A DNA stretch of 64,000 nt, from NCBI GenBank assembly GCA_012522765.1, contig JAAYJW010000312.1:2753-66752 (forward strand), in the 5' to 3' direction. This DNA comes from a candidate division WS1 bacterium. GTDB taxonomy: Bacteria > Armatimonadota > Zipacnadia > Zipacnadales > UBA5352. Of this stretch, positions 25,728 to 42,321 are shown piece after piece; the stretch's first letter is position 1; each line of letters begins with the position of its first letter. A program made the translations under genes and the position numbers. Under the pieces are notes generated by a model. It was not told the origin of the DNA. It searched no databases and saw only the letters and a program-made list of their open reading frames with translations.

Positions 25728-26084
25728 ATGGCCGCCGCTACCGAGACAATACAGCAGGCGCACGAACACCGCATCAACGGCGAATACGATGAGGCGATGG
25801 CCCTCTACCGCCAGGTGCTGGAAAAGGTGCCGGAGGAGGCCGAGGCTCTCTGGGGCCTGGGGCTGTCTCTGATGAACATCGGCGATTTCGACGAGGCGCT
25901 GGAAAGCATCTGTGCAGCGACGCAGATCGAGCCGCAGAACCAGCTCTACCTGCTCGATGCGGGTAAGCACTACACCATGCTGGGGATGTACGATGAGGCC
26001 AGGCCGTTCTTTGAGAAGGTTCTGGAGATAGACCCGACGTCGCAACACGGTGCAGAGGCACAGAAGCAGCTTTCGTACTACTAG
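25728..26084 (+). CDS. Tetratricopeptide-repeat protein
   Basis: Three TPR-like repeats (A..Y...L...P....AL..LG). Confidence 0.55.
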   Translation: MAAATETIQQAHEHRINGEYDEAMALYRQVLEKVPEEAEALWGLGLSLMNIGDFDEALESICAATQIEPQNQLYLLDAGKHYTMLGMYDEARPFFEKVLEIDPTSQHGAEAQKQLSYY

Positions 26085-26156
26085 GGATTCGGAGGGTATA
26101 TGTGAGCCGGGCCCGGGGTGGCGCAAGCGATGCCTCTGAGGGCCGGCTCTGCTGCT

Positions 26157-27992
26157 ATGGTAAAGGTAACATTCAAGCCCGGTGGCGAGAGCGGCGAGAC
26201 AGAGGCAGGCACCACGATTCTGGCTGCGGCAGCAAGCCTTGGAGTGACGATCACCGCTCCCTGTGGCGGGCGTGGCCGCTGCGGCAAGTGCCGCGTGATT
26301 GCGGAGAAAGGGTGCGCACCGCCTACGCCCTCGGAGCGCGATCAGTTGACGGGCGAGGAGCTTCGGCATGGCATCCGCCTCGCCTGCGAAGCCGTCCTGC
26401 TGGAGGACGCGCAGGTGATCATCCCGTCGGATTCGCGCACCATCAGCGGCAAGATTCTCGCCGATGATGCCCGCGAAGAGATCTCACTTCGCCCCAACGT
26501 CTCGCGTCGGACGGTGGTTCTCCCGGCCCCCAGCCTGTCCGATCAGCGTAGCGACTTCGAGCGGGTGGCGGATGGTCTCGGCACTCCCGCACAGAGTCTG
26601 AGGATGCATCGCGAGGCTCTTGCCGAGCTTCCGTCGGTGCTGCGAGACAATGACTTCAAGGTTGACGTCATCACCGTCGGCGACACCATCGCCGGAGTTC
26701 GCCCGCCGAATGCTCGCCCCTGCTGCCTCGGCGCGGCGGTGGACATCGGCACCACCACTGTGGTCGTCTATCTCGTGGACCTCTCCAGCGGCGAGCGGCT
26801 TGCGACTGCTTCGGCGCTGAATCCGCAGGCCCGCTGGGGCCATGACCTGATCTCGCGCATCGAGCACGTGCAGAGCACCCCGGCCGGGCTTGAGGATCTG
26901 CGCCGGAGCATCGTGGATCTGATCAACCGTCTGCTCGGTGAGACCACCGAGCAGGCCGGGGTCCGCAGGCGGGACATATACGAAGTCTCGATCGTCGGCA
27001 ACACCTGCATGCACCACATGTTCCTCGGCCTCGACCCGCGACATCTCGCGCACGCGCCCTACATTCCGGTTACGCGCGAGCCGCTGGAGCTTTCGGCTGA
27101 AGAGGCGGGTCTTGCGCTCAGCCCGGCGGCGAACGTATACTGCCTGCCGGTGATCGCGGGCTTCGTGGGCGCCGATACAGTCGGCGTGTTGCTCGTGTCA
27201 AGGCTGACCGAGCGCGATCATCCGACGCTGGCCATCGACATCGGCACCAACGGCGAAGTCATGCTCTGGTCGGGCGAGCGGCTGCTGGTGGCCTCCTGCG
27301 CTGCAGGTCCGGCCTTCGAAGGCGGCGAGATCCGGCATGGTGTGCGTGCTGCCGACGGGGCCATTGAGCGCGTCTGGCTCAGCAATGGAAGCATCGGCTA
27401 TGCGACGATCGGTTCCACGCGCCCCAACGGCATCTGCGGATCTGGGATCTTCGACACCGTTGCCACGCTGCTTGACAGCGGGGTTGCCGACAGCACCGGC
27501 CGGCTGGCCGATGAACAGGCCGCTGAGAAGCTGCAGCGGGGGCTGGTGGAGCGGCTGCGTGGCGAGGGCCCCCAGCGCGAGTTTGTCCTGGTGGAGAGCG
27601 CCGAGAGCGCCAACGGCGACATCGTCTTCACGCAGAAAGATCTGCGGGAAGTTCAGTTGGCGAAAGGTGCTGTGCGTGCCGCGGTGGAATTACTCTGTTC
27701 GGCGGCGGGGATAGAGGCCAATGATATCGCCGAGGTATTACTGGCGGGGGCCTTCGGCAACTACATTGACCGCCGCAGTGCGCTGCGGATGGGGCTGCTG
27801 CCGGAGGTAGGCGTGGAGCAGATCAGAGGCGTGGGCAATGCGGCCGGAGCGGGCGCGCTGGCCGCGCTGGTGTCCGTAGACGAGCGACAGCGGGCGGCGG
27901 AGCTGGCGCGGCAGGCGGAGCACATTGAGTTGATGGCCAGTCCCGCGTTCCAGATGGTCTTTGCCGACAGCATGATCTTTCCTGAGTCCTGA
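26157..27992 (+). CDS. RACo-like corrinoid reductive activation protein ([2Fe-2S] ferredoxin + ASKHA/DUF4445 ATPase)
   Basis: MVKVTFKPGGE...CGGRGRCGKCRV...LAC ferredoxin domain, then a DIGTTTVVVYLVD ASKHA N-terminal motif. The track ORF starts at 26118. Confidence 0.75.
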   Translation: MVKVTFKPGGESGETEAGTTILAAAASLGVTITAPCGGRGRCGKCRVIAEKGCAPPTPSERDQLTGEELRHGIRLACEAVLLEDAQVIIPSDSRTISGKILADDAREEISLRPNVSRRTVVLPAPSLSDQRSDFERVADGLGTPAQSLRMHREALAELPSVLRDNDFKVDVITVGDTIAGVRPPNARPCCLGAAVDIGTTTVVVYLVDLSSGERLATASALNPQARWGHDLISRIEHVQSTPAGLEDLRRSIVDLINRLLGETTEQAGVRRRDIYEVSIVGNTCMHHMFLGLDPRHLAHAPYIPVTREPLELSAEEAGLALSPAANVYCLPVIAGFVGADTVGVLLVSRLTERDHPTLAIDIGTNGEVMLWSGERLLVASCAAGPAFEGGEIRHGVRAADGAIERVWLSNGSIGYATIGSTRPNGICGSGIFDTVATLLDSGVADSTGRLADEQAAEKLQRGLVERLRGEGPQREFVLVESAESANGDIVFTQKDLREVQLAKGAVRAAVELLCSAAGIEANDIAEVLLAGAFGNYIDRRSALRMGLLPEVGVEQIRGVGNAAGAGALAALVSVDERQRAAELARQAEHIELMASPAFQMVFADSMIFPES

Positions 27993-28087
27993 TGAAGGCG
28001 TCATCCGCGCCCCATCGGCGCGTTAGGCTCTTGGCGCAAGTAGCTCCGGACGTTACGACCGCAGATCATACGGGAGGTTCATCGGAA

Positions 28088-28720
28088 ATGGCGGACCTGC
28101 AGGCACTTGCTAACGCTGTCATCGGTGGCGAGAGGGAGAACGCGCTAAGACTGACCGAGGAAGCCATTGACGAGGGTGTCAAGCCGAGCGTAATCATCAA
28201 CGACGGTCTCATCGCGGGGATGAGCGTTGTTGGCGAGAAATTCAAGAATAACGAGTTCTACGTGCCGGAGGTGCTGATCGCCGCGAGGGCCATGCAGACC
28301 GCCATGGAGCGTGTCAAGCCCCTCCTGGCCGAGGGCGAGATGACCTCTCGAGGCAAGGTTGTGATCGGCACGGTCAAGGGCGACCTGCATGACATCGGCA
28401 AGAACCTCGTTGCGATGATGCTCGAGGGCGGCGGCTTCGACGTCATAGACCTCGAGGTGGACGTATCGCCCGAGCAGTTCGTCTCGACGGCTGCCGAGAG
28501 CGGCGCCCACTGCATCGCTTTGTCGGCGCTCTTGACAACCACCATGCCTTCGATGAAGGATACGGTTGATGCGCTGGTGGAGGCCGGCCTCAAGGGGCAG
28601 GTCAAGGTCATCATCGGTGGCGCGCCGGTGACGCAGAGCTATGCGGATGAGATCGGCGCCGATGGTTACGCACCGGATGCCGCCTCTGCGGTGGACAAGG
28701 TAACCCAACTGCTGGCATAG
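28088..28720 (+). CDS. Cobalamin-binding corrinoid protein (MtbC/MtmC-like B12-binding domain protein)
   Basis: N-terminal helical cap, then VIGTVKGDLHDIGKN (DxHxxG B12 motif) and a Rossmann-like B12 domain. RBS GGAGGT. The alternative start 27992 overlaps the upstream stop. Confidence 0.8.
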   Translation: MADLQALANAVIGGERENALRLTEEAIDEGVKPSVIINDGLIAGMSVVGEKFKNNEFYVPEVLIAARAMQTAMERVKPLLAEGEMTSRGKVVIGTVKGDLHDIGKNLVAMMLEGGGFDVIDLEVDVSPEQFVSTAAESGAHCIALSALLTTTMPSMKDTVDALVEAGLKGQVKVIIGGAPVTQSYADEIGADGYAPDAASAVDKVTQLLA

Positions 28721-28837
28721 TCCCCGCTTGGAGGGGTTTCTGCTGCAGCTTCCATGCGCAGAAGCTATCACCGCCGGATCGCGCTGGTGATGGCTTCTGC
28801 GTTGTGCGCTCATGCAAGTCTACGGGAGTGAAGTGCC

Positions 28838-29272
28838 ATGCCGTGGCGTTGGATTGCGATGCTGCTTGTGGCTGTCTCGCTTGGGGCGGGCGGCCAGATG
28901 TGCCTGAAATTCGGGGTGGACCAGCTTGGTGGCGGCGGCTTGGTCGCGGTCATCAAGGGCATCTTCACGCCCTACGTCTTCGCCGGCTTCGTGCTCTACG
29001 GCCTGAGCTCAATCATCTACCTGATGGTCCTGGCACGTCTGGATCTGAGCTTCGCCTATCCTTTCGTTGCGCTCAGCTTCGTCTTTGTCACGCTGCTGTC
29101 GTGGTGGTTATTGCAGGAACAGATTCCAGGACTTCGTATCATCGGTCTCGTCCTGATTATGGGCGGTGTGCTTACCGTGGCGGCCAGTTACCGCGCCGAA
29201 GCCGCGCAGGCCGCCGAGGTCCCGCAATCGCGGGTAGCCCTTCAGACACCAACGGACCCCGGAGTGACCTGA
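28838..29272 (+). CDS. Small DMT-superfamily membrane protein (ArnE/ArnF/GtrA-like polyprenyl-phosphate-sugar flippase candidate)
   Basis: Four predicted TM helices, 144 aa. First gene of the glycosylation operon. Confidence 0.5.
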   Translation: MPWRWIAMLLVAVSLGAGGQMCLKFGVDQLGGGGLVAVIKGIFTPYVFAGFVLYGLSSIIYLMVLARLDLSFAYPFVALSFVFVTLLSWWLLQEQIPGLRIIGLVLIMGGVLTVAASYRAEAAQAAEVPQSRVALQTPTDPGVT

Positions 29273-29326
29273 GGCTTTCTGGGTCCGGCTTTGTGCCCGG
29301 CGCCGCATTCGCGTATAATCCCGTGC

Positions 29327-31528
29327 ATGAGCGGCGAGTCCGGCGACCGTACTGCGACGTGGATCGCCACCATCGCACTGGTGGCGATCGCGCTGGCGTT
29401 CTGGGGGGACTGCATCTTCGGCCCTTGGACGCCGCTTGCGGCGGGCTTTCAGGCACAGATGCAGCCGTGGGCGAGTGAGGCCGATCTGCCGGGAACCGAC
29501 CGCCAGTGGTCTCCGCTGCTCTGGGACAGCGTCGCGCAGTTCTACCCGTGGCGCCTGCTGCTCGCCAGGTCCATGCGCGGGGGTGAGCTTGCGCTGTGGA
29601 ATCCCCATCAGATGTGCGGGTATCCCTTCCTCTCCAACGCTCAGTCCGCCCTCTTCTACCCCCCCAACTGGCTGCTGCCGCTCTTTGACGTAAAGTGGGG
29701 GATGGGCCTGCTGTCGTGGCTGCACTACGCGCTGGCGGCGGTACTTACGATGCTCTTCGGGCGGAAACTCGGGCTCGGAGCGCTTCCGGCCGCCTTTGTG
29801 GGCATCGCCTTCGCGTTTGGCGGCTTCATGGTAACGTGGACCGAGTTGCCGACGCTGATCAACTCCGCGACATGGCTGCCGGGGGCTCTTCTGGGCGTGG
29901 CGCTGATCTACGAGCGGCGTCGCTGGGGCCTGCCACTGCTGGGGGCTTCGCTGGCAATGGCGCTGTTGGCAGGGCATCTGCAGATCGCAGCGTATGTCTG
30001 GATGGTCGCTCTTGTCTACGCACTCGCGCGGGCGCTCTGGGAGGCAGTTAACCGTCGCGCGGCGCATCTGGGTCGGCTTGCGGCGGCGGTAGCGCTGGGG
30101 CTGCTGCTAAGCGCGCCTCAGACGCTTCCCGCGCTCGAGCTTGCAGCGAACTCCCCCCGAGGCGCTGCGGGGCCATCCGAAGCGGGGTGGCAGTTCCAGC
30201 AGGAGCGGGTGCTGCAGGTGGCGGAACTTGTCCTGCTTGTCAGCCCGGATGCGTTCGGCAATCCCGCGCATGGCGATCACGAACTGACGCGCTATGGCAT
30301 TCCCTACTCGGAGCACTGCGGCTTTGTCGGCATCGTCACGCTGCTCCTCGCGCTTCTCGGCGCATGGTTCTCGCGCACGAGGTCATACGCGTTCTTTGCG
30401 GCCCTGGCGGTGCTGTCGCTTCACGTGGCGATGGGTGGACCGCTGGCTGAGGCGATGTACTTCTATCTGCCGAAGCTGGGGCAGGCGGGCTCGTTCACCC
30501 GCTTCCTGTCGGTCTTCACCTTCGCGGCGGCAATGGCCGCCGGGTTGGGCCTCGAGGGCATCTGCCGCTATCTGAAGCAGCGGGACGAGGTCGCGGGAGA
30601 CGAAGGCTACTGCGGCTGGAACCTCTGTGCACCTGCGGGGCTGTGCGTGGTTGCACTCGTTGTCCTCTGCTACGAACTGCTTCCCTGGGCGCACACTTTT
30701 CTGCCTCGGACGCGGCGGGAGCATGTGTACCCGATGACGCCATCTATCGAGCGACTGATGGCCGCCGAGGGGCGCGTGCTCACGGTGACCCCGCGCGAGG
30801 GCTGGAGCATGGCGCGTGTGCCGGAGGCGGTGCTGCCGCCCAACTCAGCGACGGTTTACGGATATGACGCCATCGGCGGCTACGATTCGCTGATGCTGAC
30901 GCGCTTCAGAGCGTTCCTCAGTGCGTCCGAAGGGACTGAGGTAGCGCCTCCACCCAACGGAAACATGCTGCTGCCGATGGCTGCCTGCGGGCCGGGACAG
31001 GCTCTGATGGGACTGGACACGGTGATAGCACGGCGTCAGCCGGAGCCGGCGCCGGGGCATGACTGTGATGACTGGGGGCTTTCAGTCACGCAGAGCCTCG
31101 GCGGTACGGCTATCTGGCGGGTAGCGGAGGCCCTGCCGCGGGCGTTTGTGGCCCCGGACTGGCAGGAGCTTCAGCAGATAGCGGCGGACGATCCGACCGC
31201 TATGCGGGCGGCTGTGGCGTCCTGCGAGTGGGAGCGCAGCGGCAATGCCGCTATCAGGGTGGCTGTGCCGGTTGAGCGCGAGGGCGATCACCTGGTGGCC
31301 ACGGAAACCTTTGCCCCCGGCTGGAGCGCTTATGTGGACGGTCGGCGCCGGGAGGCAGTGCCTTTCGGCGACACATTCATCAGCGTGATTCTTCAGTCTG
31401 ATGACACCGAGGTCCGCTTCGTGTACGAGTCATCGACGATCAAGGCCGGTTGCTTCGTGGGAATGCTGGGGCTGGCGGCATTGATGGTGGCGGCGACATG
31501 GCGGTCAGGGAGATATGGCAAGTATTGA
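29327..31528 (+). CDS. YfhO family GT-C membrane glycosyltransferase-like protein (paralog 1)
   Basis: DSVAQFYPWRLLL...LWNPH..GYPFLSNAQSALFYP matches the YfhO signature. Polytopic, with a C-terminal periplasmic domain. Confidence 0.75.
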   Translation: MSGESGDRTATWIATIALVAIALAFWGDCIFGPWTPLAAGFQAQMQPWASEADLPGTDRQWSPLLWDSVAQFYPWRLLLARSMRGGELALWNPHQMCGYPFLSNAQSALFYPPNWLLPLFDVKWGMGLLSWLHYALAAVLTMLFGRKLGLGALPAAFVGIAFAFGGFMVTWTELPTLINSATWLPGALLGVALIYERRRWGLPLLGASLAMALLAGHLQIAAYVWMVALVYALARALWEAVNRRAAHLGRLAAAVALGLLLSAPQTLPALELAANSPRGAAGPSEAGWQFQQERVLQVAELVLLVSPDAFGNPAHGDHELTRYGIPYSEHCGFVGIVTLLLALLGAWFSRTRSYAFFAALAVLSLHVAMGGPLAEAMYFYLPKLGQAGSFTRFLSVFTFAAAMAAGLGLEGICRYLKQRDEVAGDEGYCGWNLCAPAGLCVVALVVLCYELLPWAHTFLPRTRREHVYPMTPSIERLMAAEGRVLTVTPREGWSMARVPEAVLPPNSATVYGYDAIGGYDSLMLTRFRAFLSASEGTEVAPPPNGNMLLPMAACGPGQALMGLDTVIARRQPEPAPGHDCDDWGLSVTQSLGGTAIWRVAEALPRAFVAPDWQELQQIAADDPTAMRAAVASCEWERSGNAAIRVAVPVEREGDHLVATETFAPGWSAYVDGRRREAVPFGDTFISVILQSDDTEVRFVYESSTIKAGCFVGMLGLAALMVAATWRSGRYGKY

Positions 31529-32892
31529 AGACGCTACTGGTTTTCCCTCGTTTCAGGTACCCCTCGGGCGATCCGCCTCTGGGTGTTGCTTATCTCGCCG
31601 CGGCAATGCGCGAGCGAGGACTGGATGTTGAGATCTTTGACGCTACCTTCGTGCGCAATCCACTGGAGCGACTGCGTGAGAGGCTGGTGCGGGGGCTGTA
31701 TGATCTCGTCGGCGTGAGCGCGCTGACGTCTATGATCGGCGATGCGGCCGATGTTGCACGGGTAGTGCGTGAGAGCAGCCCGGCGACGATGGTGGTGGCC
31801 GGAGGTCCGCACCCGACGGTGGCGCCGGAGCACACGCTCTCGCTCGGTGTGTTCGATGCTGTGATGGTGGGGGAGGGCGAGGAGACGCTGCCGCAACTGG
31901 TCGAGTCGGGCCTGCGGCTGGAGGATCAGCCCGGGATCGCCTACCTCGCAGATGGCGAGATGGTGCGTAATGATCCTGCGGAGGTCGTTGCGGACCTTGA
32001 CGCGCTGCCCAACCCGGCGTGGGACCTGCTGGAGATGGACCGCTACCTGGGATTGTGGTATCAGCTTGATGCGGTGCGCTATGGCGTGCGCGGAACGTCC
32101 ATCATGGCCTCGCGCGGCTGCCCCTATCGCTGCACGTACTGCCAGCCGACGCTGGGGACGATCTTCGGGCGGAGAGTCCGGCGACGTTCGCCTCAGTCGC
32201 TGGTGGCGGAGGCGGAGGAACTCAAGCGCAGGTTCGGCATTGAGGGCCTGATGTGGCTCGACGACACCTTCCTTCTCGACCGGGCATGGATGCGCGAGTT
32301 GTGCGAGGCGATGATCGAGGCGAAGCTTGGGCTTATCTGGGGCTGCAACGTGCGCGCCGATGTCTGCGACCGCGAGAGCCTGCAGATCATGCAGCAGGCC
32401 GGGCTTCGGATGGTGCATGTGGGCATCGAATCGGCGTCGCAGCGCGTGCTGGATGAGATATATGACAAGGGGATCACGCTCGAGCAGGTGCGTGAGGCGG
32501 TGGAGATGGCGAGCGATCTGGGGCTGAAGGTACGCGGCTACTTCATGCTCGGCGCGCCGACGGAGACTGAGGAGGAGGTGCGGGCGAGTGTGCAACTGGC
32601 GAATGAGTTGCCGCTGGATGACGTGACCTTCAGCATCACCACGCCGCTCCCGCACACCTACCTCTACGATTCGACGCTCGATCTGATCTCAGCGGAGTTC
32701 TCGCACTTCGACTACTACAAGTCGGCGGTCTACGACAGCGACCTTGTTCTGCCGGGACAAACACTTGACAGACTGAAGAAGCTGGCGTACATCAAGTTCT
32801 ACCTGGGGCCGAAGCGTCTCTGGCGTACGATCCAGTCGATGCTGGGGATATCGGGCCTGCGGAAGGCGCTGCTGAAGATACAGAGGTTCTGA
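31525..32892 (+). CDS. B12-binding (class B) radical SAM enzyme
   Basis: N-terminal cobalamin-binding domain (PLGVAYLAAAMRERG...VVAGGPHPT) and radical SAM CPYRCTYCQ. The start overlaps the YfhO stop (TTG 31525 or ATG 31498). Confidence 0.85.
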   Translation: MKTLLVFPRFRYPSGDPPLGVAYLAAAMRERGLDVEIFDATFVRNPLERLRERLVRGLYDLVGVSALTSMIGDAADVARVVRESSPATMVVAGGPHPTVAPEHTLSLGVFDAVMVGEGEETLPQLVESGLRLEDQPGIAYLADGEMVRNDPAEVVADLDALPNPAWDLLEMDRYLGLWYQLDAVRYGVRGTSIMASRGCPYRCTYCQPTLGTIFGRRVRRRSPQSLVAEAEELKRRFGIEGLMWLDDTFLLDRAWMRELCEAMIEAKLGLIWGCNVRADVCDRESLQIMQQAGLRMVHVGIESASQRVLDEIYDKGITLEQVREAVEMASDLGLKVRGYFMLGAPTETEEEVRASVQLANELPLDDVTFSITTPLPHTYLYDSTLDLISAEFSHFDYYKSAVYDSDLVLPGQTLDRLKKLAYIKFYLGPKRLWRTIQSMLGISGLRKALLKIQRF

Positions 32893-32894
32893 AC

Positions 32895-34778
32895 ATGGAG
32901 GCGACTGCGGGGACAAGTGGGCGGGAGGCGCTGGTGACGGGGCGCGAGATGGCGCCGGTGCTTCTGTGGGCGCTGGTCATCGCGGCGCTGACGGCATGGC
33001 CCTACGTCTGGGCGGTGCAGAGCGCGGGGCCGGATCAGCAGTTTCAGGGCTTCCTGTGGGGTGTAGATGACGGGAACGTCTACCTGTCGTGGATTCGGCA
33101 GGCCTCCGAAGGGCGCGTATTGCTGCGCAATCAGTACACGACCGTCGAGCAGAATCCGCACTTCTTCAATGTCTTCCTGCTGGCGCTGGGGAGGGTGACG
33201 GCGTGGACGGGCCAGCACCCCGGGATCATCTTCCATGCGTCGCGCCTGCTCGGGAATGTCGCGTTGCTGCTGATGATCTATCTGCTGGCGGCCTTCGTGA
33301 CACGCTCGGTGGCAGCGCGCTGGGGAGCGCTTGCGCTGGCGTCACTGGGTTCGGGCTTCGGATGGCTGGCGGCGATCTGGGCGAGCAGCGTTCCGCCGCC
33401 ACTGCCGCCGCCGCTGCGTCCTCCCGACTACGCCCCCCTGCCACCGCAGACGTGGCAGGTGATGCCCGAGGCGGTCACATTCCTGTCAATGCTGCTCAAT
33501 CCGCTCTTCGTGTGGTCCATGGCGCTCATGTGCGGAGTGCTCGTCTCGGCCGCCATCGCCCTCGAGCGCCGGAGCATCGCGTGGGCGGTGCCCGCGGGTC
33601 TGCTGCTGCTGCTTGTGGGCAATATGCACACCTACGACCTGCCCGTTCTGCACACCACGACGCTGCTCTTCGCTCTCATCCTCGTGCTACAGCGGCGGAT
33701 CAAATTCGCGGACGCGCTGCTGATTTATGCGATCATCTTCATCATTGCCCTGCCGGCCCCGGTGTGGGGGTGGTGGGCGGCGAATCAGGACCCGTCGTAC
33801 CTCGCGAAGGTTGAGACACCGACGCTGTCACCTCCGGTGCATGACTACATCGTCGGGTATGGGCTGATCCTGCTGCTGGCGATCCCCGGGGCATGGTACG
33901 CGATCAAGCGGCGGCGAGAGAACCCGCGCCTGCTGCTGCCGGTCTGCTGGGTGGGCATCAACGCGCTGCTGCTGTACGCGCCGGTGGCCTTCCAGCGTAA
34001 GATGGCTGAGGGGCTGCACATCCCGCTCTGCCTGCTGGCGGGCATTGCGCTCGCGCTGGTGATTGCACCGGCGCTCGCGGTGCATCGGGTGCGACCGGAG
34101 AGTGTGCCGGGAGTGGTTCCGGCGGGTGCGAGGCCGAAGTGGCGCTCGCGACCGCCGACGCAGCTTGAGTATGCGTTGCTTGTCGTGCTGGCAGTGGCGG
34201 TGACGTTGCCATCAAACCTGCTTTTCGTGAACACGTGTCTCCACCATGTGGCGACGAACAACCGCGATCTTCTGCGCTACCTGCAGCCGCCGATCTATCT
34301 GAGCTTCGATGAGGTCAACGGGATCAAGGCGCTGGCGGCGAAGGCGGGGCCGGACGAGATCGTGCTGTCGTCATCGCTGACTGGTAATCACATCCCGGCG
34401 CGAGCATCATGCCTGGTCTTCAGCGGCCACTGGGCGGAGACGCTGGAGTTCGGGCGGACGGTGGACTATGTCGGGCAGTTGCTGCTGCCGGGGCGCGAGA
34501 GACACGTGCTCTGGTCGGCGGTCAGGCGCATCAATGCGAGCTATGTCTTCTACGGTCCGCTGGAGGCGCTGCTGGCGGAGCAGATGATGCTCGCGGCGGA
34601 CCTCGAGCCTCCCGAGGATCCGGCCGCCGAGTTTCGCCGGTCCACCGAGCAGTTCCTGAGGCCGGTCTTCGAGCGGGGCGAAGTGACCGTCTATCGCTTC
34701 GACCCGAACGCGCAGGTGGAGCTTGACTTCCCACGGCATGAGGGGCCGATCCCAACTTCGGTCGCGGATGCGCTATGA
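32895..34778 (+). CDS. Polytopic membrane protein, putative GT-C fold glycosyltransferase
   Basis: About 13 hydrophobic helices, a proline-rich loop and a C-terminal soluble domain. No confident family assignment from motifs. Confidence 0.45.
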   Translation: MEATAGTSGREALVTGREMAPVLLWALVIAALTAWPYVWAVQSAGPDQQFQGFLWGVDDGNVYLSWIRQASEGRVLLRNQYTTVEQNPHFFNVFLLALGRVTAWTGQHPGIIFHASRLLGNVALLLMIYLLAAFVTRSVAARWGALALASLGSGFGWLAAIWASSVPPPLPPPLRPPDYAPLPPQTWQVMPEAVTFLSMLLNPLFVWSMALMCGVLVSAAIALERRSIAWAVPAGLLLLLVGNMHTYDLPVLHTTTLLFALILVLQRRIKFADALLIYAIIFIIALPAPVWGWWAANQDPSYLAKVETPTLSPPVHDYIVGYGLILLLAIPGAWYAIKRRRENPRLLLPVCWVGINALLLYAPVAFQRKMAEGLHIPLCLLAGIALALVIAPALAVHRVRPESVPGVVPAGARPKWRSRPPTQLEYALLVVLAVAVTLPSNLLFVNTCLHHVATNNRDLLRYLQPPIYLSFDEVNGIKALAAKAGPDEIVLSSSLTGNHIPARASCLVFSGHWAETLEFGRTVDYVGQLLLPGRERHVLWSAVRRINASYVFYGPLEALLAEQMMLAADLEPPEDPAAEFRRSTEQFLRPVFERGEVTVYRFDPNAQVELDFPRHEGPIPTSVADAL

Positions 34779-37156
34779 GCAGAGACGAGCGCCGACATGG
34801 CCCCAGGCGGGCGGACGATCTGCTTGCCCTCGGCTTTCTGCTTGTGGTATCGCTTGCGGTGCTGTGGCAGGTGACGATCGGCGACCGGGCAATGCTGCCG
34901 ACCGGCCTCTACCACCGCATGCAGCCGTGGCGGGCTCACGCGGACGAGCTTCCCCGGGTGGACGGCCCGCTCAACCCGATCCTCGACGCGGTGCAGCAGT
35001 TCTACCCGTGGCGGCTCTACGCAGCGCGAACGGTGCGGGAGGGGGAGGTGCCGCTGTGGAACACGCAGATGCTCTCCGGGGCGCCCTTCGTAGCGAACGG
35101 CCAGTCGGCGGTCTTCTACCCGGAGACGTGGCTGCACTACGTGATTGACCCGCTGAAGGCGCTCGGTTGGGCGACGCTGGCTTTCTATCTCATCGCGGGA
35201 TGGGGCATGTACCTGTTCCTGCGGGTGCTTTCGGCGCGGCCCGTGGCGGCGGTCATTGGCGCGCTGGCTTTCATGTTCAGCGGCTTCTTCACTGGCTGGC
35301 TGACCTTCCCGGCACTACGTTCGGTCGCCGCATGGCTACCGCTGGCGCTGGTGGGGATCGAGCTTGCCGTGCAGCGGCGTCGAGTTGCGTGGCTGGGACT
35401 CACCTCCCTCGCGGTCGGGATGCAGTTCCTCGCGGGACACCTGCAGGTAGCGATCTACGTGCTGACCTGCCTTGGGCTCTACGCGCTGTTTCGCAGCGCC
35501 GCAGTGGCGAGGAACCGCTCGAGGGCCGAGGGGTGGCGGCTGGGGGGCGCAGTTGCTGCAGCGGTGGTGCTGGGGACTCTGCTGGCCGCCGCGCAGTTGG
35601 GGCCGTCGCTGGAGATGGCCCGGCTGAACTACCGGGTGGCGGGAGTGAGCTATGAAGCGCAGGTGGCACATGCGCTGGCCCTGCCGCAGGCGCTGTTGAT
35701 GCTGATGCCGGATGCGTTCGGGAACCCGGTGGACGGCAATCACTGGGGCGGCGACCTCAATGCGTGGTGGGGGAGAGCCTACCGGGTCTACACGGAGACG
35801 GCGTGGTATATCGGAATCGCCCCGCTGCTGCTGGGCGTGGCTGCTGTCGGCCTGGGTCGGGGCGCTCAACGCTGGTTCTGGCTGGCGATCGTTCTGCTGG
35901 GGCTTGCTCTCGCCTTTGGCACGCCGCTCAACGCGCTCTTTCGGTGGCTGGTGCCCGGCTACGGTCAACTGACCGGGATCGGCAGAGCGCTGGCGCTCGT
36001 CTGCACCGGCGCCTCGGTGCTGGCAGGGCTTGGCGCCGAGGTGCTGATGAGGACGCTTCGGCCCGACCGGGCGATGAAGCTCGTTGCGGCGGCTGCACTG
36101 GTGCTGCTGCTGGCGGGAATCGCGGGTGGACTGGCAGTGTGGATATTCACGGGCACCCTGGAGGCGGCGGAGCCTTCACTGCAACTTGGCGGGTACACGC
36201 TGGCGCAGATGGCGCGGTTCGGGGTTCTGCTGATCGCGGCCTGGGCGCTGGTGTCGCGGGGTGTGCGTGGGGAGGGGCGTTACACCTGGCACGCTCTCGC
36301 GCTGCTCGTGGCGCTGGATGTCGGCTACTTCGCGGGACACTTCACGCCCGCAGGGAGAACGGACTTCGCGCAGGTTGAGGCCGGACTGCTGGAGCCGATC
36401 GAGCAGGCGCAGGGGCCGCAGCGCATCGCGACGCTTGGACCGGACTTTCTCAACCGCATCGCCCCCAACACACACATGATCCTCGGGCTGCAGTCGTGCG
36501 AGGGCTCAGAGTCGCTGATCTACGCGCCCTATCACCGGCTCATCTCGGCGGCTCAGAGTGAGCGCTTCGACTTCGCGCAGGTGGATCCGCGGCATCCGGT
36601 GCTTGACCTCATGGCGGTGGGCTGGCTGGCCTCCATGGTGGAGATTGATGAATCCGGATGGCGGCTGCAGGGCCGCTATGAGACGCTGATGTACGCGAAC
36701 GAAGAGGCGGCGCCGAGGGCGTTCCTGGCGCGGCGGGCGGTCGGTGCGGCTGATGATGACGCGATCTTCCGGGCAATCACTTCGGAAGATGCAGACCCGC
36801 TGACGATCCACCTGCTCGGCACCGCGGATGAAGCGCCGACCCACGAGGGTGAGGTGCGTGTCGCAGCATATGAGGCTAACGCGGTGCGAGTGGAGGGTGA
36901 GATGCCTTCCGGGGGATGGCTGGTGCTGGCGGATGTGGCCTATCCGGGTTGGCGCGCGTATGCCGATGGAGTCGAGGCGCCGCTGATCGCCGCCGATCTG
37001 GTTCGGCGCGCCGTGCATCTGCCGGACGGCGCTCGTGAGGTGCAGTTTGTGTACCTTCCCGCAGCGTTCCGCGTCGGCAGCTTCATGAGCCTGTTGGCTC
37101 TGGGGGCGCTCGGTGCGCTGATCGGAGTTGTGCTGGTGGGGAGACGAAGAGGATGA
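34775..37156 (+). CDS. YfhO family GT-C membrane protein (paralog 2)
   Basis: DAVQQFYPWRLY...LWNTQ..GAPFVANGQSAVFYP. ATGA overlap with the upstream gene. Confidence 0.75.
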   Translation: MSRDERRHGPRRADDLLALGFLLVVSLAVLWQVTIGDRAMLPTGLYHRMQPWRAHADELPRVDGPLNPILDAVQQFYPWRLYAARTVREGEVPLWNTQMLSGAPFVANGQSAVFYPETWLHYVIDPLKALGWATLAFYLIAGWGMYLFLRVLSARPVAAVIGALAFMFSGFFTGWLTFPALRSVAAWLPLALVGIELAVQRRRVAWLGLTSLAVGMQFLAGHLQVAIYVLTCLGLYALFRSAAVARNRSRAEGWRLGGAVAAAVVLGTLLAAAQLGPSLEMARLNYRVAGVSYEAQVAHALALPQALLMLMPDAFGNPVDGNHWGGDLNAWWGRAYRVYTETAWYIGIAPLLLGVAAVGLGRGAQRWFWLAIVLLGLALAFGTPLNALFRWLVPGYGQLTGIGRALALVCTGASVLAGLGAEVLMRTLRPDRAMKLVAAAALVLLLAGIAGGLAVWIFTGTLEAAEPSLQLGGYTLAQMARFGVLLIAAWALVSRGVRGEGRYTWHALALLVALDVGYFAGHFTPAGRTDFAQVEAGLLEPIEQAQGPQRIATLGPDFLNRIAPNTHMILGLQSCEGSESLIYAPYHRLISAAQSERFDFAQVDPRHPVLDLMAVGWLASMVEIDESGWRLQGRYETLMYANEEAAPRAFLARRAVGAADDDAIFRAITSEDADPLTIHLLGTADEAPTHEGEVRVAAYEANAVRVEGEMPSGGWLVLADVAYPGWRAYADGVEAPLIAADLVRRAVHLPDGAREVQFVYLPAAFRVGSFMSLLALGALGALIGVVLVGRRRG

Positions 37157-38793
37157 CACCGGCGGTGATGCGCGGGCTCGAGGCGCTGCTTGTCTTCGCG
37201 CTCGTCACGATCCTGCTTGCCACCACCGCGCACAGCTACGGCCTCGGTTACGACGAACCGGTGTACATGTCGCGGATGCAGGAGGCGTCCGCGTGGCTGC
37301 GGCTGCTGCGGATTGACCCGGGGGAGGCGCTGAGCCGCGATGGCGTCAGCCGCTTCTGGGACGCGCGCAGCGAGCAGCAGCCCGGCTTTCTCAAGCTCTG
37401 GGGGGCGGTCACGACGCCCCTCGTGGCGAGTTGGCTCTCGCCGCTCGCGGCGCTGCGGTTCGGCACGCATCTGCTGGTGGGGCTGCTGTGCGCGAGTCTC
37501 TACGTGCTGGTGGCGCCGCTGTGGGGGCGGCTCGAGGGCATTGCTGCGGTCGGGGCGCTGATTACTCTGCCGCGCACCTTCGCGCACGCGCATCTTTTCG
37601 CGCTGGATGCTCCCGTCATGGCGGCGACTTTCATCTCACTGCATTTCTTCTACCTGTGCGCGCGCGAGCGAAGTTGGTGGTGGGCGGCGGCAGGCGCGGC
37701 AGTGTGGGGCGTGGCGCTGAGCATCAAGGTGAACGCGTTCTTCGTGCCGGTGATAGTGCTCCCGTGGCTGGCGCTCTACGCGCGTGACGCGCTGCTGCCC
37801 GCACTTGCGTGCGGTGTCACGCTCGGTCCGCTGAGCTTCATGGCAACATGGCCGTGGCTGTGGTACGACACGATCAGCCGCCTCGGGGCGTACATGGCCT
37901 TCCACGCGCGGCACTGGCAGATTCACGTGACTTACTTTGGACAGCGGCTCGCGCCCGCGCCGTGGCACTATCCGATCGTGATGACGGCAATCACAACGCC
38001 GGTGGTGACGCTCATCGCCGCCGTCGGAGGTGCGGTGCGGATGGTGCGCGAACCTCACGGCGAGGTAGAGGGCGCCGACTGGCGCTCCCGCTGGGCCGAT
38101 GGAGGCCAGTGCAGGAGGGCATTGGCGGCCCTCGTCGGCTGGGCGCTGCTGGTGAATCTCGTGCTCAATTCGCTCCCCGGCACGCCCAAGTACAATGGCG
38201 TGCGGCTGTTCCAGCCGATCTTCCCGCTGCTGGCGCTGGCAGCGGGAGTCGGGATAGGCTGGATGGCGCGGTGGGTGGCGCTTAAGCTGGAGGAACGGGG
38301 TGCGGCGCTGGGCGAAGCAACGCCACGGATCGCCGCCGCGCTGGTGGTCCTCGTGGCACTGGCGCTGCCGCTACGTGACGTGCTTGCGTATCACCCGCAT
38401 CAACTGAGCTACTACGGCCCGCTGATCGGCGGGCTGAGTGGGGCGGCGCAGGCGGGCATGGAGCCGACGTACTGGGGCGAGACGTATCTTGATGGGGCGT
38501 TGTGGCTCAATGAGCACGCCCCGCCGGGGGCGGTGGTCTGGATCGAACCGCCGGGTGTTGAGGCCACGATGCGCGTGTATCAGGAGCTTGGCCTGCTCAG
38601 GACGGACATCCGCACCACCGCCGGCTCGGATGCACTCGCGACTGCGGATTACGCGCTGTTTCAAAACAAGGAGACGGAGTTCACTGACGATTCGCGGAGG
38701 CTACTGCAGACGCGGGAGCCCTGTGGCGTCGTACAGGAACAGGGAGTGCCGCTGCTGCTGATCTTCTGTCTGACTGATGGAGGCGAGACGTGA
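37153..38793 (+). CDS. GT39/GT83-like (PMT/ArnT family) polyprenyl-phosphate-sugar dependent glycosyltransferase
   Basis: YGLGYDEPVY in the first extracytoplasmic loop (the DE/DD motif of PMT/ArnT). Polytopic. ATGA overlap. Confidence 0.65.
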   Translation: MTPAVMRGLEALLVFALVTILLATTAHSYGLGYDEPVYMSRMQEASAWLRLLRIDPGEALSRDGVSRFWDARSEQQPGFLKLWGAVTTPLVASWLSPLAALRFGTHLLVGLLCASLYVLVAPLWGRLEGIAAVGALITLPRTFAHAHLFALDAPVMAATFISLHFFYLCARERSWWWAAAGAAVWGVALSIKVNAFFVPVIVLPWLALYARDALLPALACGVTLGPLSFMATWPWLWYDTISRLGAYMAFHARHWQIHVTYFGQRLAPAPWHYPIVMTAITTPVVTLIAAVGGAVRMVREPHGEVEGADWRSRWADGGQCRRALAALVGWALLVNLVLNSLPGTPKYNGVRLFQPIFPLLALAAGVGIGWMARWVALKLEERGAALGEATPRIAAALVVLVALALPLRDVLAYHPHQLSYYGPLIGGLSGAAQAGMEPTYWGETYLDGALWLNEHAPPGAVVWIEPPGVEATMRVYQELGLLRTDIRTTAGSDALATADYALFQNKETEFTDDSRRLLQTREPCGVVQEQGVPLLLIFCLTDGGET

Positions 38794-39308
38794 TGACGGG
38801 TGCTCAGGCCGACCGGGTGCCGCTCCCCGATCCGGTACGGATACTTCTGCTTGACATAGATGGCGTGCTGACCGACGGCGGGATGTACTTCAGCGCCGAG
38901 GGTCAGGCGATGAAGCGCTTCGATGTGAAGGACGGGCTGGGGGTGGTGCGACTGGCGGAGTTGGGCTTCCCGACGGCTGTCGTCAGCGGCGATCGATCGG
39001 CGATCAGCGCCGCGCGTTGCGACGTGCTGCGCATCGGGCACGTGGTGCTGGGGCGCATGGACAAGGAGACAGCTGTGAACGAGGTGCTGGAGATGACCGG
39101 CATCGCGGCGGAGAGCGCCGTGTACATCGGCGATGACATCACGGACCTCCCGGCGCTGCACATGGTCGGCCTCGGAGTGGCGGTAGCGGATGCGGTGGAC
39201 GTGGTGCGAGAGCAGGCGGACTGGGTCACGAGACGCCCGGGCGGGCATGGTGCAGTGCGGGAGATATGCGACGCTATCATTGAGCAGATCGCCCGGCGGG
39301 AGAGCTGA
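38793..39308 (+). CDS. KdsC-family HAD phosphatase (3-deoxy-octulosonate/nonulosonate-phosphate phosphatase-like)
   Basis: LLLDIDGVLTDGGMYF...DG.G...L...G......SGD...GDDITDL. Confidence 0.7.
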   Translation: MTGAQADRVPLPDPVRILLLDIDGVLTDGGMYFSAEGQAMKRFDVKDGLGVVRLAELGFPTAVVSGDRSAISAARCDVLRIGHVVLGRMDKETAVNEVLEMTGIAAESAVYIGDDITDLPALHMVGLGVAVADAVDVVREQADWVTRRPGGHGAVREICDAIIEQIARRES

Positions 39309-39326: not shown

Positions 39327-40295
39327 GTGAAGACCGACCTGTCGCTCTGCATCGTCTCTTACAACTGCAAGGAACTGCTGGTGGAGTGCCTGCGCAGCAT
39401 ATTCGAGCACGTCGCCGGGCTGGAGGTCGAGGTGATCGTCGCCGACAACGCCTCCTCCGACGGCACCGTTGAGATGCTGCGGGCTGATTTCCCGCGGGTG
39501 CGCCTGCTCGCTTTCGAGGACAACCGCGGGTTCGCCGCCGGGACAAACGCGGCTATGGCCGCGGCGGGCGGCGAAGTGCTGATGATGCTGAACCCGGATA
39601 CGACGCTACGCGAGGGGGCTGTGCAGCAGCTCGTGGCCTTCCTGGGGGAACGCCCTGAGGCGGGGGCGGTCGGCCCCGCGATCTTCGATCCCGAGGGAGG
39701 GCTGCAGATGACCTGCCACCTCTTCCCGACGCTGTGGCAGACGCTGATACGCCAACTGGGGCTGCACCGTGCCTTCCCGGCCTCCCGCACTTTCGGCGCG
39801 TACGATATGACGTGGTGGGATCACAGCCAGCCGCGGCGCGTGGATTGGCTCTCCGGCGCTTGCATCGCCGTGCGGCGGGATGTTTGGGAGCGAGTGGGCG
39901 GTCTGGACGAGGGCTTCTTCATGTATGCGGAGGATGTGGATTGGTGTTACCGGCTTGCCCAGGCTGAGTTTGAGCGGTGGTATCTCCCCGGCGCCGAGAT
40001 TGTGCATCATGAAGCGGGGAGCTGGGCCGACGCGTCTCGGGAACGGATCATCGCGTCGCACCGCTCTATGTTCCGCTACTTCGGCAAGAACTACGGCCAT
40101 CTGCAGGAGGTGGCTGTGCGGCTGCTGGTGGCGTGGGGGGCGCTGATCCGCGGCAGCTTCTGGACCATCATGGGTCCGGTGCTGGGGGAGCGGGAGGCGT
40201 TCGTGTCGAGCTATGAGACTCACTTCCGCGTCGCCGAACGTGCGGCGGCGATGGAGGAGACGTGGCGCGAGCGACGCCGGGGGGGGCTGTCATGA
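39327..40295 (+). CDS. GT2 family glycosyltransferase (paralog a)
   Basis: SLCIVSYNCKELL...ADNASSDGT...DNRGFAAGTN...LNPDT. GTG start with RBS GGAGG. Confidence 0.8.
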   Translation: MKTDLSLCIVSYNCKELLVECLRSIFEHVAGLEVEVIVADNASSDGTVEMLRADFPRVRLLAFEDNRGFAAGTNAAMAAAGGEVLMMLNPDTTLREGAVQQLVAFLGERPEAGAVGPAIFDPEGGLQMTCHLFPTLWQTLIRQLGLHRAFPASRTFGAYDMTWWDHSQPRRVDWLSGACIAVRRDVWERVGGLDEGFFMYAEDVDWCYRLAQAEFERWYLPGAEIVHHEAGSWADASRERIIASHRSMFRYFGKNYGHLQEVAVRLLVAWGALIRGSFWTIMGPVLGEREAFVSSYETHFRVAERAAAMEETWRERRRGGLS

Positions 40296-41440
40296 GCGAC
40301 CGGCGCCTGCGTATCGGGATTGACGCACGCGCTATCTCTTACCCCAAGACGGGCGACAGGAGTTACACCCTCGGGCTGATAGACGGTCTCGCACGGCTGC
40401 GACGGGGGGGCACGGTGTCGCATGAGTTCGTGCTCTACTTCGATCAGGAGCCACCGGAGCAGCTTTCCTGTGCAGCGGAGAATGCTCTGGACCCAGGCTG
40501 GTCAGTCCACGTACTCGGGGCCCCTCACGGCCGCCTCTGGACATTGCAGGCGCTTCCCCGCGCGGCGAAAGAGGACGGAATCGATGTGCTCCACGTGCAG
40601 TACAACGGCCCGCGCATCAGGAGGCCCGCGCTGGTCACGACGGTGCATGACATCAGCTTCAGGCTGCATCCGGAGTGGTTTCCGCTCAAGGACCGCCTGC
40701 TGCTCGACCTGGGGCTCAGATCCACCCTCTCGGTCGCGCGGCATGTGTTCGCGGTCTCTGAGTTCACCCGCGCCGGTGTGATCTCAAGCTACGGCGTGCC
40801 GCCGGAGCGGGTCTCCGTGACGTACAACGCGTTGCCGCCGGCTTTCACCGCGCCGGATGAGGCGGCGGTCGAGCGGGTGCTGGCCGCCCATGGTCTGAGC
40901 CGCCCCTACGTGCTCTTCGTGGGTGTGCGCCAGCCAAGGAAGAACCTGCCGCGAACGGTCGCGGCCTTTGTGTCCGCGAAGCAGAGTGGGGCCCTCCCGC
41001 ATCGCCTGGTGCTGGCCGGCAAGGCCGGATGGCGTGCCACCGAGACTGAGCGGGCGATTGCCGAGGCGGGCGAGGACGTGCTACCGCTGGGTTATGTGCC
41101 GGATGAGGACCTCCCGGCGCTTTATGCCGGTGCGGACCTGCTGCTCTTTCCATCGCTGCTGGAGGGCTTCGGAATCCCGGTGTTGGAGGCATTCGCCTGC
41201 GGCACTCCGGTGGTGACTTCCGACGAGTCAGCGCTTCCGGAGATCGCCGGTGATGCCGCACTGCTGGTCAATCCGCGAGATGAGGAGGGCATCGCGGGGG
41301 CGATTCTGCGGGTGCTGAACGAGCCGACGCTGCGCGATGAGCTTGTGCGCAGAGGGTTTGAGCGGCTTCGGCTTTTTGACTGGCAGGAGACCGCGCGGCG
41401 CACCGTGGCCGGCTATGAGCGGGCGGTGGAGGTGCAGTGA
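40292..41440 (+). CDS. GT4 family glycosyltransferase
   Basis: EGFGIPVLEAFACGTPVV and VGYVPDEDLPALYAGADLLLFPS motifs. ATGA overlap. Confidence 0.85.
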   Translation: MSDRRLRIGIDARAISYPKTGDRSYTLGLIDGLARLRRGGTVSHEFVLYFDQEPPEQLSCAAENALDPGWSVHVLGAPHGRLWTLQALPRAAKEDGIDVLHVQYNGPRIRRPALVTTVHDISFRLHPEWFPLKDRLLLDLGLRSTLSVARHVFAVSEFTRAGVISSYGVPPERVSVTYNALPPAFTAPDEAAVERVLAAHGLSRPYVLFVGVRQPRKNLPRTVAAFVSAKQSGALPHRLVLAGKAGWRATETERAIAEAGEDVLPLGYVPDEDLPALYAGADLLLFPSLLEGFGIPVLEAFACGTPVVTSDESALPEIAGDAALLVNPRDEEGIAGAILRVLNEPTLRDELVRRGFERLRLFDWQETARRTVAGYERAVEVQ

Positions 41441-42321
41441 CCGAAGCCTGGCCGGACCTCTCGATCGTCATCGTCTCGTGGAACACTCGCGATCTGCTCG
41501 ATGCCTGCCTGGTGAGCATCAGGGCGATTCCGGACGCGGTTACACGCGAGGTCATCGTGGTGGACAATGCCTCCACAGACGGCACGGCAGAGATGGTGCG
41601 CGACGACCACCCGGACGTTTCGTTGATCGCCAACGAGGAGAACCGCGGGTATGCGGCCGGCAACAACCAGGGCATTGCACTGGCGGCGGGTAGAGACGTG
41701 TTGCTGCTCAACCCGGACATCGTGGTGCTGGAGGGCGCGCTGGATACGCTGGCAGGTCTGCTCGACGACAGGCCGCAGGTCGGGGCGGTTGCGCCGCGGC
41801 TGGTGCTGATGGACGGGAGTACGCAGGCGAGCTGCCGGAGCTTCCCGACACCTGATGTGGTGTTGTACGAGGCGCTGGGACTGAGCCGGCTCTTCCCGCG
41901 CAGCCGCCGCTTCGGAAAGTACCGCATGACGTGGTGGGACTATGACGACGAGCGCCCGGTGGATCAGCCGATGGCGTCCGCGTTGCTGCTGCGTGGCGAG
42001 GCATTGGAGCAGGTCGGCGGCATGGACGAGGACTTCCCGATCTTCTTCAATGACGTAGACCTGTGCAAGCGTCTGTGGGAGGCCGGGTGGGAGGTCTGGT
42101 ATACGCCGGGCGCGTCGATGGTGCACGTTGGCGGCGCGTCCACCAGGCAGGCGCGTCGGCGTATGATCGTCGAGTCGCACCGCAGCTTCGAGTTCTTCTA
42201 CCGCAAGCACTACCGCGGCCGCATCTCGTGGTGGAGCTACTGGATGGCGCTCGGCCTGCTTCGGTTGGGGTTTCGCCTCAGGTTACTGGGCCACGACTTC
42301 CGCCGGATGCTGTCGCGGTGA
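41437..42321 (+). CDS. GT2 family glycosyltransferase (paralog b)
   Basis: LSIVIVSWNTRDLL...VDNASTDGT...ENRGYAAGNN...LNPD. GTGA overlap. Confidence 0.8.
   Translation: MTEAWPDLSIVIVSWNTRDLLDACLVSIRAIPDAVTREVIVVDNASTDGTAEMVRDDHPDVSLIANEENRGYAAGNNQGIALAAGRDVLLLNPDIVVLEGALDTLAGLLDDRPQVGAVAPRLVLMDGSTQASCRSFPTPDVVLYEALGLSRLFPRSRRFGKYRMTWWDYDDERPVDQPMASALLLRGEALEQVGGMDEDFPIFFNDVDLCKRLWEAGWEVWYTPGASMVHVGGASTRQARRRMIVESHRSFEFFYRKHYRGRISWWSYWMALGLLRLGFRLRLLGHDFRRMLSR

Follow-up and report, generated by a model that had tools for sequence, protein, structure and literature searches.

How does a bacterium use four large membrane-bound glycosyltransferases that are encoded almost back to back? We addressed this question for a 64,000-nt stretch of DNA from an uncultured member of the Armatimonadota (contig JAAYJW010000312.1; the whole stretch is hereafter called the window). 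Ten genes between positions 28838 and 42321 of the window follow each other closely (Table 1), and we estimate a probability of about 70% that they constitute an operon for envelope glycosylation acting by the steps outlined below. Four of the products are glycosyltransferases of the C fold (GT-C): two members of the YfhO family (YfhO1 and YfhO2), a protein without any named family (protein C) and a relative of PMT_2/ArnT enzymes. A first-pass annotation of the sequence had listed these four proteins between 29327 and 38793 as GT-C enzymes of a single operon, and the four genes are indeed intact and located on the + strand. The annotation had overlooked, however, a radical S-adenosylmethionine (SAM) gene inside the same interval, as well as the gene of a small ArnE/ArnF-like protein upstream and four genes downstream that encode a KdsC-like phosphatase and three soluble glycosyltransferases of families 2, 4 and 2 (GT2, GT4 and GT2).

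Both YfhO proteins score above the cut-off of the Pfam family YfhO (PF09586; 28.5 bits), and most orthologs of YfhO1 carry a precomputed match to this family. The two proteins are paralogs, as had been proposed: BLASTP aligned them with 38% identity over 413 aa (E 5e-63) and returned an additional C-terminal match (25% identity, E 9e-7), and the profiles of their orthologs were matched by hhalign with a probability of 100% over 693 columns. The motifs LWN and SA(L/V)FYP are shared by the two sequences as annotated; the remaining motif had been given as DxxQ and actually reads D-x3-Q-F-Y-P-W-R (DSVAQFYPWR and DAVQQFYPWR). In YfhO1, the motif residues D67, Q71, P74, W75 and R76 show a conservation of at least 95% among 41 orthologs; D71, Q75, P78, W79 and R80 of YfhO2 are conserved as well, and the key YfhO residues overall reach at least 95% in 36–41 orthologs. 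We ruled out that either copy is a frameshifted pseudogene, a possibility that would have undermined the annotation, since both open reading frames (ORFs) are intact and their lengths match those of the orthologs (~700–750 aa and 780–810 aa). An alternative TTG start of YfhO1 is found at 29291. A recent tandem duplication was also ruled out because, throughout the phylum, orthologs group according to their position: the upstream copy is of the YfhO1 type in 40 of 41 cases and the copy downstream of protein C is of the YfhO2 type in 33 of 36. This makes the duplication an ancient one.

A search of PDB sequences with YfhO1 returned nothing. Its AlphaFold2 model (predicted local distance difference test, pLDDT, 93.3; predicted template modelling score, pTM, 0.93) contains a beta-rich domain at residues 480–700 followed by a terminal helix at 703–724, and its top Foldseek matches are GT-C enzymes only (AftD, PglB, AglB, ArnT and AftA). 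Together with hydropathy, these results assign to the YfhO proteins the architecture of GT-C enzymes, i.e., a first transmembrane (TM) segment, a loop with a conserved Asp (D67 in YfhO1 and D71 in YfhO2), a C-terminal domain and a final TM helix.

Protein C did not match any entry of Pfam or NCBIfam, nor any PDB sequence. Its AlphaFold2 model (pLDDT 92.9, pTM 0.91) presents ~11–13 membrane helices, and the 32 best Foldseek matches of this model in PDB are all GT-C enzymes, with E values down to 1.4e-9 and TM-scores up to ~0.5. The top matches are STT3, AglB, AftA, DPY19 and ArnT, and the matches further include PglB, AftD, ALG12, Emb and Pmt4. The possibility that protein C is a transporter, which had been named as the outcome that would contradict its assignment, was rejected: transporters appeared only at E > 0.05 with TM-scores of ~0.1, and GT-C enzymes alone were found among the significant matches. 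Four residues of the loop that follows the first TM segment (D58, N61, R68 and Q69) are invariant in an alignment of 40 sequences; D58, the acidic residue expected in this loop, lies within WGVDDGNVYLSWIRQ, and D58 and Q69 are still at least 95% conserved across 73 sequences. The confident model thus assigns a GT-C fold to protein C, which belongs to a large unnamed family. In an exhaustive profile search over clusters at 50% identity, this family comprised 6,604 representative clusters when E was limited to 1e-3 and 2,519 when it was limited to 1e-30, with members in Chloroflexota and Fimbriimonadaceae (homolog P0145). Among 160 word-indexed homologs, all those with a source name are labelled "hypothetical". 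One homolog (P0091) matches DUF6541 in its C-terminal part only, and our literature search found no paper that mentions this domain. Protein C is remotely homologous to its PMT_2-like neighbor (hhalign probability 91.8%, E 7e-7), and no homology to the YfhO proteins was detected by BLASTP or hhalign.

The PMT_2-like protein had been described as a PMT/ArnT-like enzyme with a YDEP loop motif, and this description stands: the protein scores above the cut-off of Pfam PMT_2 (PF13231), and the motif Y33-D34-E35-P36, which includes the Asp-Glu pair expected in the first loop of this family, is located just after the first TM segment and shows at least 95% conservation among 21 orthologs. Hydropathy indicates at least nine TM segments followed by a C-terminal domain of 135 aa, and a PDB sequence search with this protein returned nothing. 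Four GT-C-type membrane proteins are therefore encoded by the operon, two of them assigned to YfhO, one to PMT_2 and protein C by its fold. All four share the same layout according to hydropathy and alignments: a first TM segment, a loop of 76–98 aa with a conserved Asp and a C-terminal soluble domain. The Asp is at least 95% conserved across the 21–73 orthologs of each protein. This layout is consistent with extracytoplasmic transfer.

From YfhO1 to the last GT2, every start overlaps or abuts the previous stop. The start and stop overlap by 4 nt at five junctions (C/YfhO2, YfhO2/PMT_2-like, PMT_2-like/KdsC-like, GT2/GT4 and GT4/second GT2), which fits a single operon as annotated, although one that extends well beyond the interval first described. 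The GT4 gene starts at an ATG at 40292 that overlaps the preceding stop, according to the gene call on an identical contig of the Joint Genome Institute (JGI). A scan for promoters and terminators gave counts that were not above the shuffled expectation and no internal terminators above chance; one promoter-like site (28692–28721) lies ahead of the ArnE/F-like gene. Rfam and tRNA searches of the whole window returned no match, and no riboswitch or other RNA element was found in its intergenic regions.

Table 1. Genes of the putative envelope-glycosylation operon, with positions in the window and the basis of each assignment (HAD, haloacid dehalogenase; Kdo, 3-deoxy-D-manno-oct-2-ulosonic acid; SMR, small multidrug resistance).
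Feature	Position	Strand	Basis
ArnE/ArnF-like 4-helix protein, EamA/SMR type, 144 aa, flippase candidate	28838-29272	+	Hydropathy, sub-cut-off profile matches
YfhO1, YfhO-family GT-C, 733 aa	29327-31528	+	Pfam YfhO 54.2 bits
B12-binding (class B) radical SAM enzyme, 464 aa	31498-32892	+	Pfam B12-binding 81.5 bits, Radical_SAM 96.2 bits
Protein C, predicted GT-C fold, 627 aa	32895-34778	+	AlphaFold2 model, Foldseek; no Pfam or NCBIfam match
YfhO2, YfhO-family GT-C, 793 aa	34775-37156	+	Pfam YfhO 34.8 bits, DUF7657 28.7 bits
PMT_2/ArnT-like GT-C, 546 aa	37153-38793	+	Pfam PMT_2 28.3 bits (cut-off 26.1)
KdsC-like HAD phosphatase, Kdo-8-phosphate phosphatase (YrbI) subfamily	38790-39308	+	TIGR01670 136.7 bits (cut-off 106.95)
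Soluble GT2, 326 aa	39315-40295	+	Pfam Glycos_transf_2 84.4 bits
Soluble GT4 (GT-B)	40292-41440	+	Pfam Glycos_transf_1 106 bits, Glyco_transf_4 54.6 bits
Second soluble GT2, 294 aa, last coupled gene of the operon	41437-42321	+	Pfam Glycos_transf_2 70 bits

We then analyzed the conservation of this arrangement using tblastn over 80 species-level genome loci encoding a homolog of protein C. Upstream genes were counted in the 55 loci with at least 4.5 kb upstream of the C gene and downstream genes in the 41 loci with at least 6 kb downstream. A YfhO gene was found directly upstream of C in 50 of the 55 loci and an ArnE/F-like gene upstream of YfhO in 47 of the 55; the radical SAM gene separates YfhO1 and C in 22 of the 55. 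Downstream of C, 25 of the 41 loci present a second YfhO gene, 23 a PMT_2-like gene after YfhO2, 18 a KdsC-like gene and 16 the second soluble GT2. Because the arrangement recurs in dozens of species-level genomes, it is not due to chance, and its core, composed of the flippase-like protein, YfhO and C, is conserved across Armatimonadota. The minimal module was observed in locus L086 (flippase-like, YfhO, optionally radical SAM, and C). The largest, in a distant member of the phylum (L087, 5054–20882), combines two ArnE/F-like genes with five or six GT-C-like genes; it encodes two ArnE/F-like proteins, YfhO, PMT/PMT_2, C, an unassigned protein of 508 aa, a small GT2, second copies of YfhO and of PMT_2, a GT2 and a GT4. 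Finally, a metagenomic organism of low G+C content encodes a protein of 1,352 aa (P0170; L088, 4756–8814) with one half similar to YfhO2 (22% identity over 762 aa) and one half similar to C (27% over 587 aa), followed by a 244-aa GT2. This protein could be a natural fusion of YfhO and C or an artefact caused by an indel in its single-run assembly.

The first gene of the operon encodes, 55 nt upstream of YfhO1, a protein with four TM segments according to hydropathy. Its Pfam matches to TMEM234 (29.2 bits) and EamA (27.7 bits) are both just below the cut-offs, and its best NCBIfam matches are the two flippase subunits for aminoarabinose-undecaprenyl-phosphate, ArnE over the full length (E 1.8e-10, 41 bits vs a cut-off of 92) and ArnF (E 1e-9, 38.9 vs 99 bits). 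These families set it apart from the GtrA/GtcA flippases, since GtrA is not among its matches. Based on these similarities, we consider this protein a candidate flippase for a polyprenyl-phosphate-linked sugar. The radical SAM enzyme presents the features of class B, i.e., an N-terminal B12-binding domain, a radical SAM core and the motif CPYRCTYC in its translation. Its best NCBIfam matches are below the cut-offs (BchE, 201.8 vs 481 bits; HpnJ, 188 vs 578 bits), and its closest solved structure is the sugar-modifying enzyme AprD4 (6fd2, E 4.6e-25).

Among the downstream genes, the KdsC-like protein scores above the cut-off of its subfamily and below that of the KdsC equivalog (152.9 vs 208 bits); the closest solved structure is KdsC of E. 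coli (E 4e-36). No TM segment was found by hydropathy in the GT2 encoded directly after it. We considered the GT2 proteins of the window as possible polyprenyl-phosphate-sugar synthases, and this role was not supported: their best NCBIfam matches are of the MftF, rhamnosyltransferase and EpsD types. A GT2 of 240–250 aa is encoded directly after C in 17 related loci (16 among the genome loci), some of which are closely related to the window. This small gene lies between C and YfhO2 at L007 5322–6050, L010 11923–12645, L018 4127–4867, L019 12475–13182 and in 13 other loci, and it is missing from the C/YfhO2 junction of the window, where the two genes overlap by 4 nt. The copy of L087, the single one scanned, had its best NCBIfam matches to dolichyl-phosphate hexose transferase, PpgS, PgfS and ArnC and is thus DPM1/PpgS/PgfS/ArnC-like; the small GT2 proteins of the 17 loci are homologous to this copy.

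Taken together, these observations suggest how the envelope-glycosylation operon may act. A sugar would be loaded onto polyprenyl phosphate at the cytoplasmic face by a synthase encoded outside the window, and the lipid-linked sugar would then be flipped by the ArnE/ArnF-like 4-helix protein. On the periplasmic face, YfhO1, C, YfhO2 and the PMT_2-like protein would use the flipped sugar, each through the Asp of its first loop, and the four transfers may take place in sequence or as alternatives to each other. In the cytoplasm, the soluble GT4, the two GT2 proteins and the KdsC-like phosphatase would assemble the corresponding portion of the acceptor, and the B12-radical SAM enzyme would optionally tailor the sugar or the lipid. 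As to the acceptor itself, we would first guess at an envelope glycan that contains Kdo, for instance the core of lipopolysaccharide (LPS), because a KdsC-like gene is part of the operon and metagenome-assembled genomes (MAGs) of these Armatimonadota classes encode LPS and Kdo genes (PMC10290634). There is precedent for the logic of such a system (PMC8035078, PMC11127046).

Several points weigh against this interpretation. No polyprenyl-phosphate-sugar synthase is encoded anywhere in the 64-kb window, and the operon carries no initiating phosphoglycosyltransferase, Wzx, Wzy or ligase, such that it does not define the acceptor pathway. The ArnE/F-like protein falls under every curated cut-off and, to our knowledge, the flippase activity of such small proteins has rarely been shown directly. 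Membership of the fourth GT-C in PMT_2 is marginal, and the KdsC-like gene may be merely a housekeeping LPS gene at this location. Finally, ~40% of the related loci lack the genes that follow C (those of YfhO2, PMT_2, KdsC and the soluble glycosyltransferases), indicating that the four GT-C proteins need not act on one product.

The operon resembles several characterized systems without being identical to any of them. In three-component glycosylation, known as CsbB/GtcA/YfhO in Bacillus, Staphylococcus and Listeria and as GtrA/GtrB/Gtr* in Shigella and Salmonella (PMC8035078), a YfhO-family GT-C with an N-terminal loop motif is likewise found alongside a small 4-helix flippase candidate, and in relatives of our operon a synthase-type small GT2 is part of the cluster as in CsbB/GtcA/YfhO. 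In contrast to these systems, four GT-C genes are present rather than one, the candidate flippase resembles ArnE/F (EamA/SMR) and not GtrA/GtcA, the window lacks the cognate synthase, B12-radical SAM and KdsC-like genes are added, and the host is a diderm without teichoic acids. The Pgf cluster of Streptococcus mutans (PgfS, PgfE, PgfM1 and PgfM2) also contains two YfhO-type GT-C paralogs, with a third (PgtC2) elsewhere in S. mutans, and B. subtilis has three GT-A/GT-C pairs; several GT-C systems per genome are common (PMC8035078). Paired YfhO genes are therefore not unprecedented, and the first-pass annotation started from a weak premise when it stated that YfhO usually occurs singly. Unlike the Pgf cluster, our operon lacks counterparts of PgfS and PgfE and adjoining adhesin substrates, it adds two non-YfhO GT-C proteins, and its similarity to the equivalogs is only distant (PgfM2, 20.6 vs 1500 bits; PgfM1, 15.1 vs 1400 bits).

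With the Arn pathway for lipid A aminoarabinose (ArnC, ArnE/ArnF and ArnT), the operon shares the combination of a small ArnE/F-like membrane protein and a PMT_2/ArnT-like GT-C; its host is a diderm that has LPS genes, and ArnT is among the structural matches. However, no homologs of ArnA, ArnB, ArnC or ArnD were found in the operon, which thus does not constitute this pathway; its matches remain far from reaching the cut-offs of the Arn equivalogs, and a single ArnE/F-like gene is present (two in L087). The arabinan machinery of mycobacteria (AftA-D, EmbA-C and Rv3789) offers another likeness, in that several GT-C enzymes are combined with a small 4-helix exporter of polyprenyl-phosphate sugars and AftA and AftD are top structural matches. 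It differs by the lack of detectable sequence homology, by its phylum and envelope and by donor genes dependent on phosphoribosyl pyrophosphate that have no equivalent here. Finally, protein C is comparable to new families of the GT136 type, which present a GT-C fold and no similarity to existing glycosyltransferase families and which were found by predicted structure and three-component context; the activity of GT136 was shown biochemically, whereas that of protein C is inferred (PMC11127046).

The likeness to mycobacteria raises the possibility that the GT-C proteins form a periplasmic assembly line, which would act in sequence with one or two polyprenyl-phosphate donors and build a lineage-specific envelope polymer as AftA-D and EmbA-C do, beyond decorating a glycan that already exists. 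The four consecutive GT-C genes of the operon and the five or six of L087 are compatible with such a line, as are the structural matches to AftA and AftD, the mycobacterial combination of a small SMR-type 4-helix exporter with several GT-C enzymes (PMC11127046) and the vertical conservation of the cluster in a housekeeping region (Gmk, CoaBC, MetK, PriA, Def and Fmt) rather than in a variable island. We nevertheless consider an assembly line rather unlikely: genes for primer synthesis or attachment are not present, there is no sign of processivity, and the number of GT-C genes varies from two to six between genomes, which fits modular decorations more easily. Slightly less probable, in our view, is that the targets are periplasmic or surface proteins instead of a glycolipid or polysaccharide, with the YfhO and PMT_2-like enzymes performing O-glycosylation of their Ser/Thr-rich regions in the manner of streptococcal Pgf/PgtC2 and of the PMT family. 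PgfM1 and PgtC2, both of the YfhO family, glycosylate Ser/Thr-rich disordered regions, the Pgf cluster has its own pair of YfhO paralogs, PMT_2 is named for protein O-mannosyltransferases, and the top structural matches of protein C are the oligosaccharyltransferases STT3, AglB and PglB. However, a TM-score of ~0.5 tells the fold and not the acceptor, and the weak C-terminal NCBIfam matches of YfhO1 to PgfM2 and PgfM1 amount to 15–21 bits for cut-offs of 1400–1500. Moreover, neither a candidate acceptor protein nor a GT2 of the PgfS type nor an epimerase is encoded by the operon, and its KdsC-like phosphatase and soluble GT2 and GT4 proteins are typical of glycan assembly.

It is also conceivable that the four GT-C genes belong to unrelated pathways and are neighbors only through a frozen chromosomal region, given that PriA, Def, Fmt, a RACo-type activase and a corrinoid protein are part of the conserved block at similar frequencies. 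We regard inherited gene order as a very improbable explanation. Overlaps of 4 nt link the GT-C genes and are not seen in the upstream housekeeping genes, YfhO and C stay paired even where identity has dropped to 30%, the two are apparently fused in P0170, and relatives have a matching donor-synthase-like GT2 inserted within the block. A more speculative proposal, to which we give little credence, is that YfhO-type and C/PMT_2-type GT-C proteins are obligate heteromeric pairs and that the operon arose when a module of two genes was duplicated long ago, giving YfhO1-C and YfhO2-PMT_2-like; the product of these pairs and of the B12-radical SAM enzyme would be an envelope glycan specific to Armatimonadota, with an unusual radical-SAM-tailored sugar. 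Hints in this direction come from the homology between YfhO1 and YfhO2 and the remote homology between C and the PMT_2-like protein, from the adjacency of YfhO and C and the renewed succession of a YfhO and a PMT-type gene in L087, and from the apparent fusion P0170, whose topology is compatible with both halves.

Returning to the proposed envelope-glycosylation operon, its novelty lies in the gene combination and its phylum-wide conservation, in the ArnE/F-like partner in place of a GtrA-like one, in the embedded B12-radical SAM gene and in the recognition that protein C stands for a large GT-C family without a name. Our literature search found no paper on this locus, and the paper describing the classes Zipacnadia and Hebobacteria nowhere mentions glycosyltransferases. 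For the Armatimonadota, of which few members are in culture and whose cell surface is uncharacterised, the analysis places a conserved envelope locus in a functional context for the first time, and it gives a predicted GT-C fold to a "hypothetical" family that spans at least Armatimonadota and Chloroflexota. The recurring pairing of YfhO and PMT-like proteins, including the apparent fusion, could mean that bacterial GT-C enzymes act as heteromers. No concept is overturned, as three-component periplasmic glycosylation and clusters of multiple GT-C genes, including those of mycobacteria, are established (PMC11127046).

The G+C content of the window is ~65%. Over the stretches compared, its proteins match a 344-kb JGI metagenome contig and anaerobic-digester assemblies with ~100% identity, and homologs of its genes are found almost only in MAGs of Armatimonadota, including Candidatus Zipacnadia, Hebobacteria and "WS1". 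Three long ORFs, at 31534–32655 (−), 29108–30067 (−) and 28804–29478 (+), are antisense to or out of frame with genes of the operon; we take them to be by-products of the high G+C content because the genes that they overlap have family matches and conserved homologs. Upstream of the operon, at ~15600–26100 (+), lies a string of housekeeping genes (Gmk, CoaBC, MetK, PriA, Def, Fmt and a small tetratricopeptide repeat protein), of which at least the PriA-Fmt part is order-conserved across related loci; the order is one that is also familiar in Actinobacteria and Firmicutes.

Between this string and the operon, at 26118–28720 (+), a RACo-type reductive activase (2Fe-2S and ASKHA; Pfam RACo domains at 262 and 207 bits) is encoded together with a stand-alone corrinoid protein. 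Among solved structures, this corrinoid protein is closest to 1y80 (E 1.5e-66), with MttC, MtmC and MetH ranking behind. The two genes are located directly upstream of the glycosylation cluster in 43–47 of the 55 related loci, without an adjoining methyltransferase. A functional link to the radical SAM gene was not supported, as the pair is kept in loci that lack this gene; a role in a split methionine synthase is a speculative possibility. Downstream, the operon is followed by genes for a histidine kinase, BatA and alanine racemase. At the end of the window, from about 60499 to 64000 (−), are encoded a radical SAM protein, three CbiA/ParA-type ATPases with 4Fe-4S ferredoxin domains and a Nitro_FeMo-Co (dinitrogenase cofactor-binding-like) protein. 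Finally, the regions 47097–52948 (+) and 56897–60286 (−) encode proteins of 985 and 957 aa with weak matches to ThuA and GHL10 and a Laminin_G_3 protein of 1,129 aa, and these large proteins are probably secreted carbohydrate-active or surface proteins.

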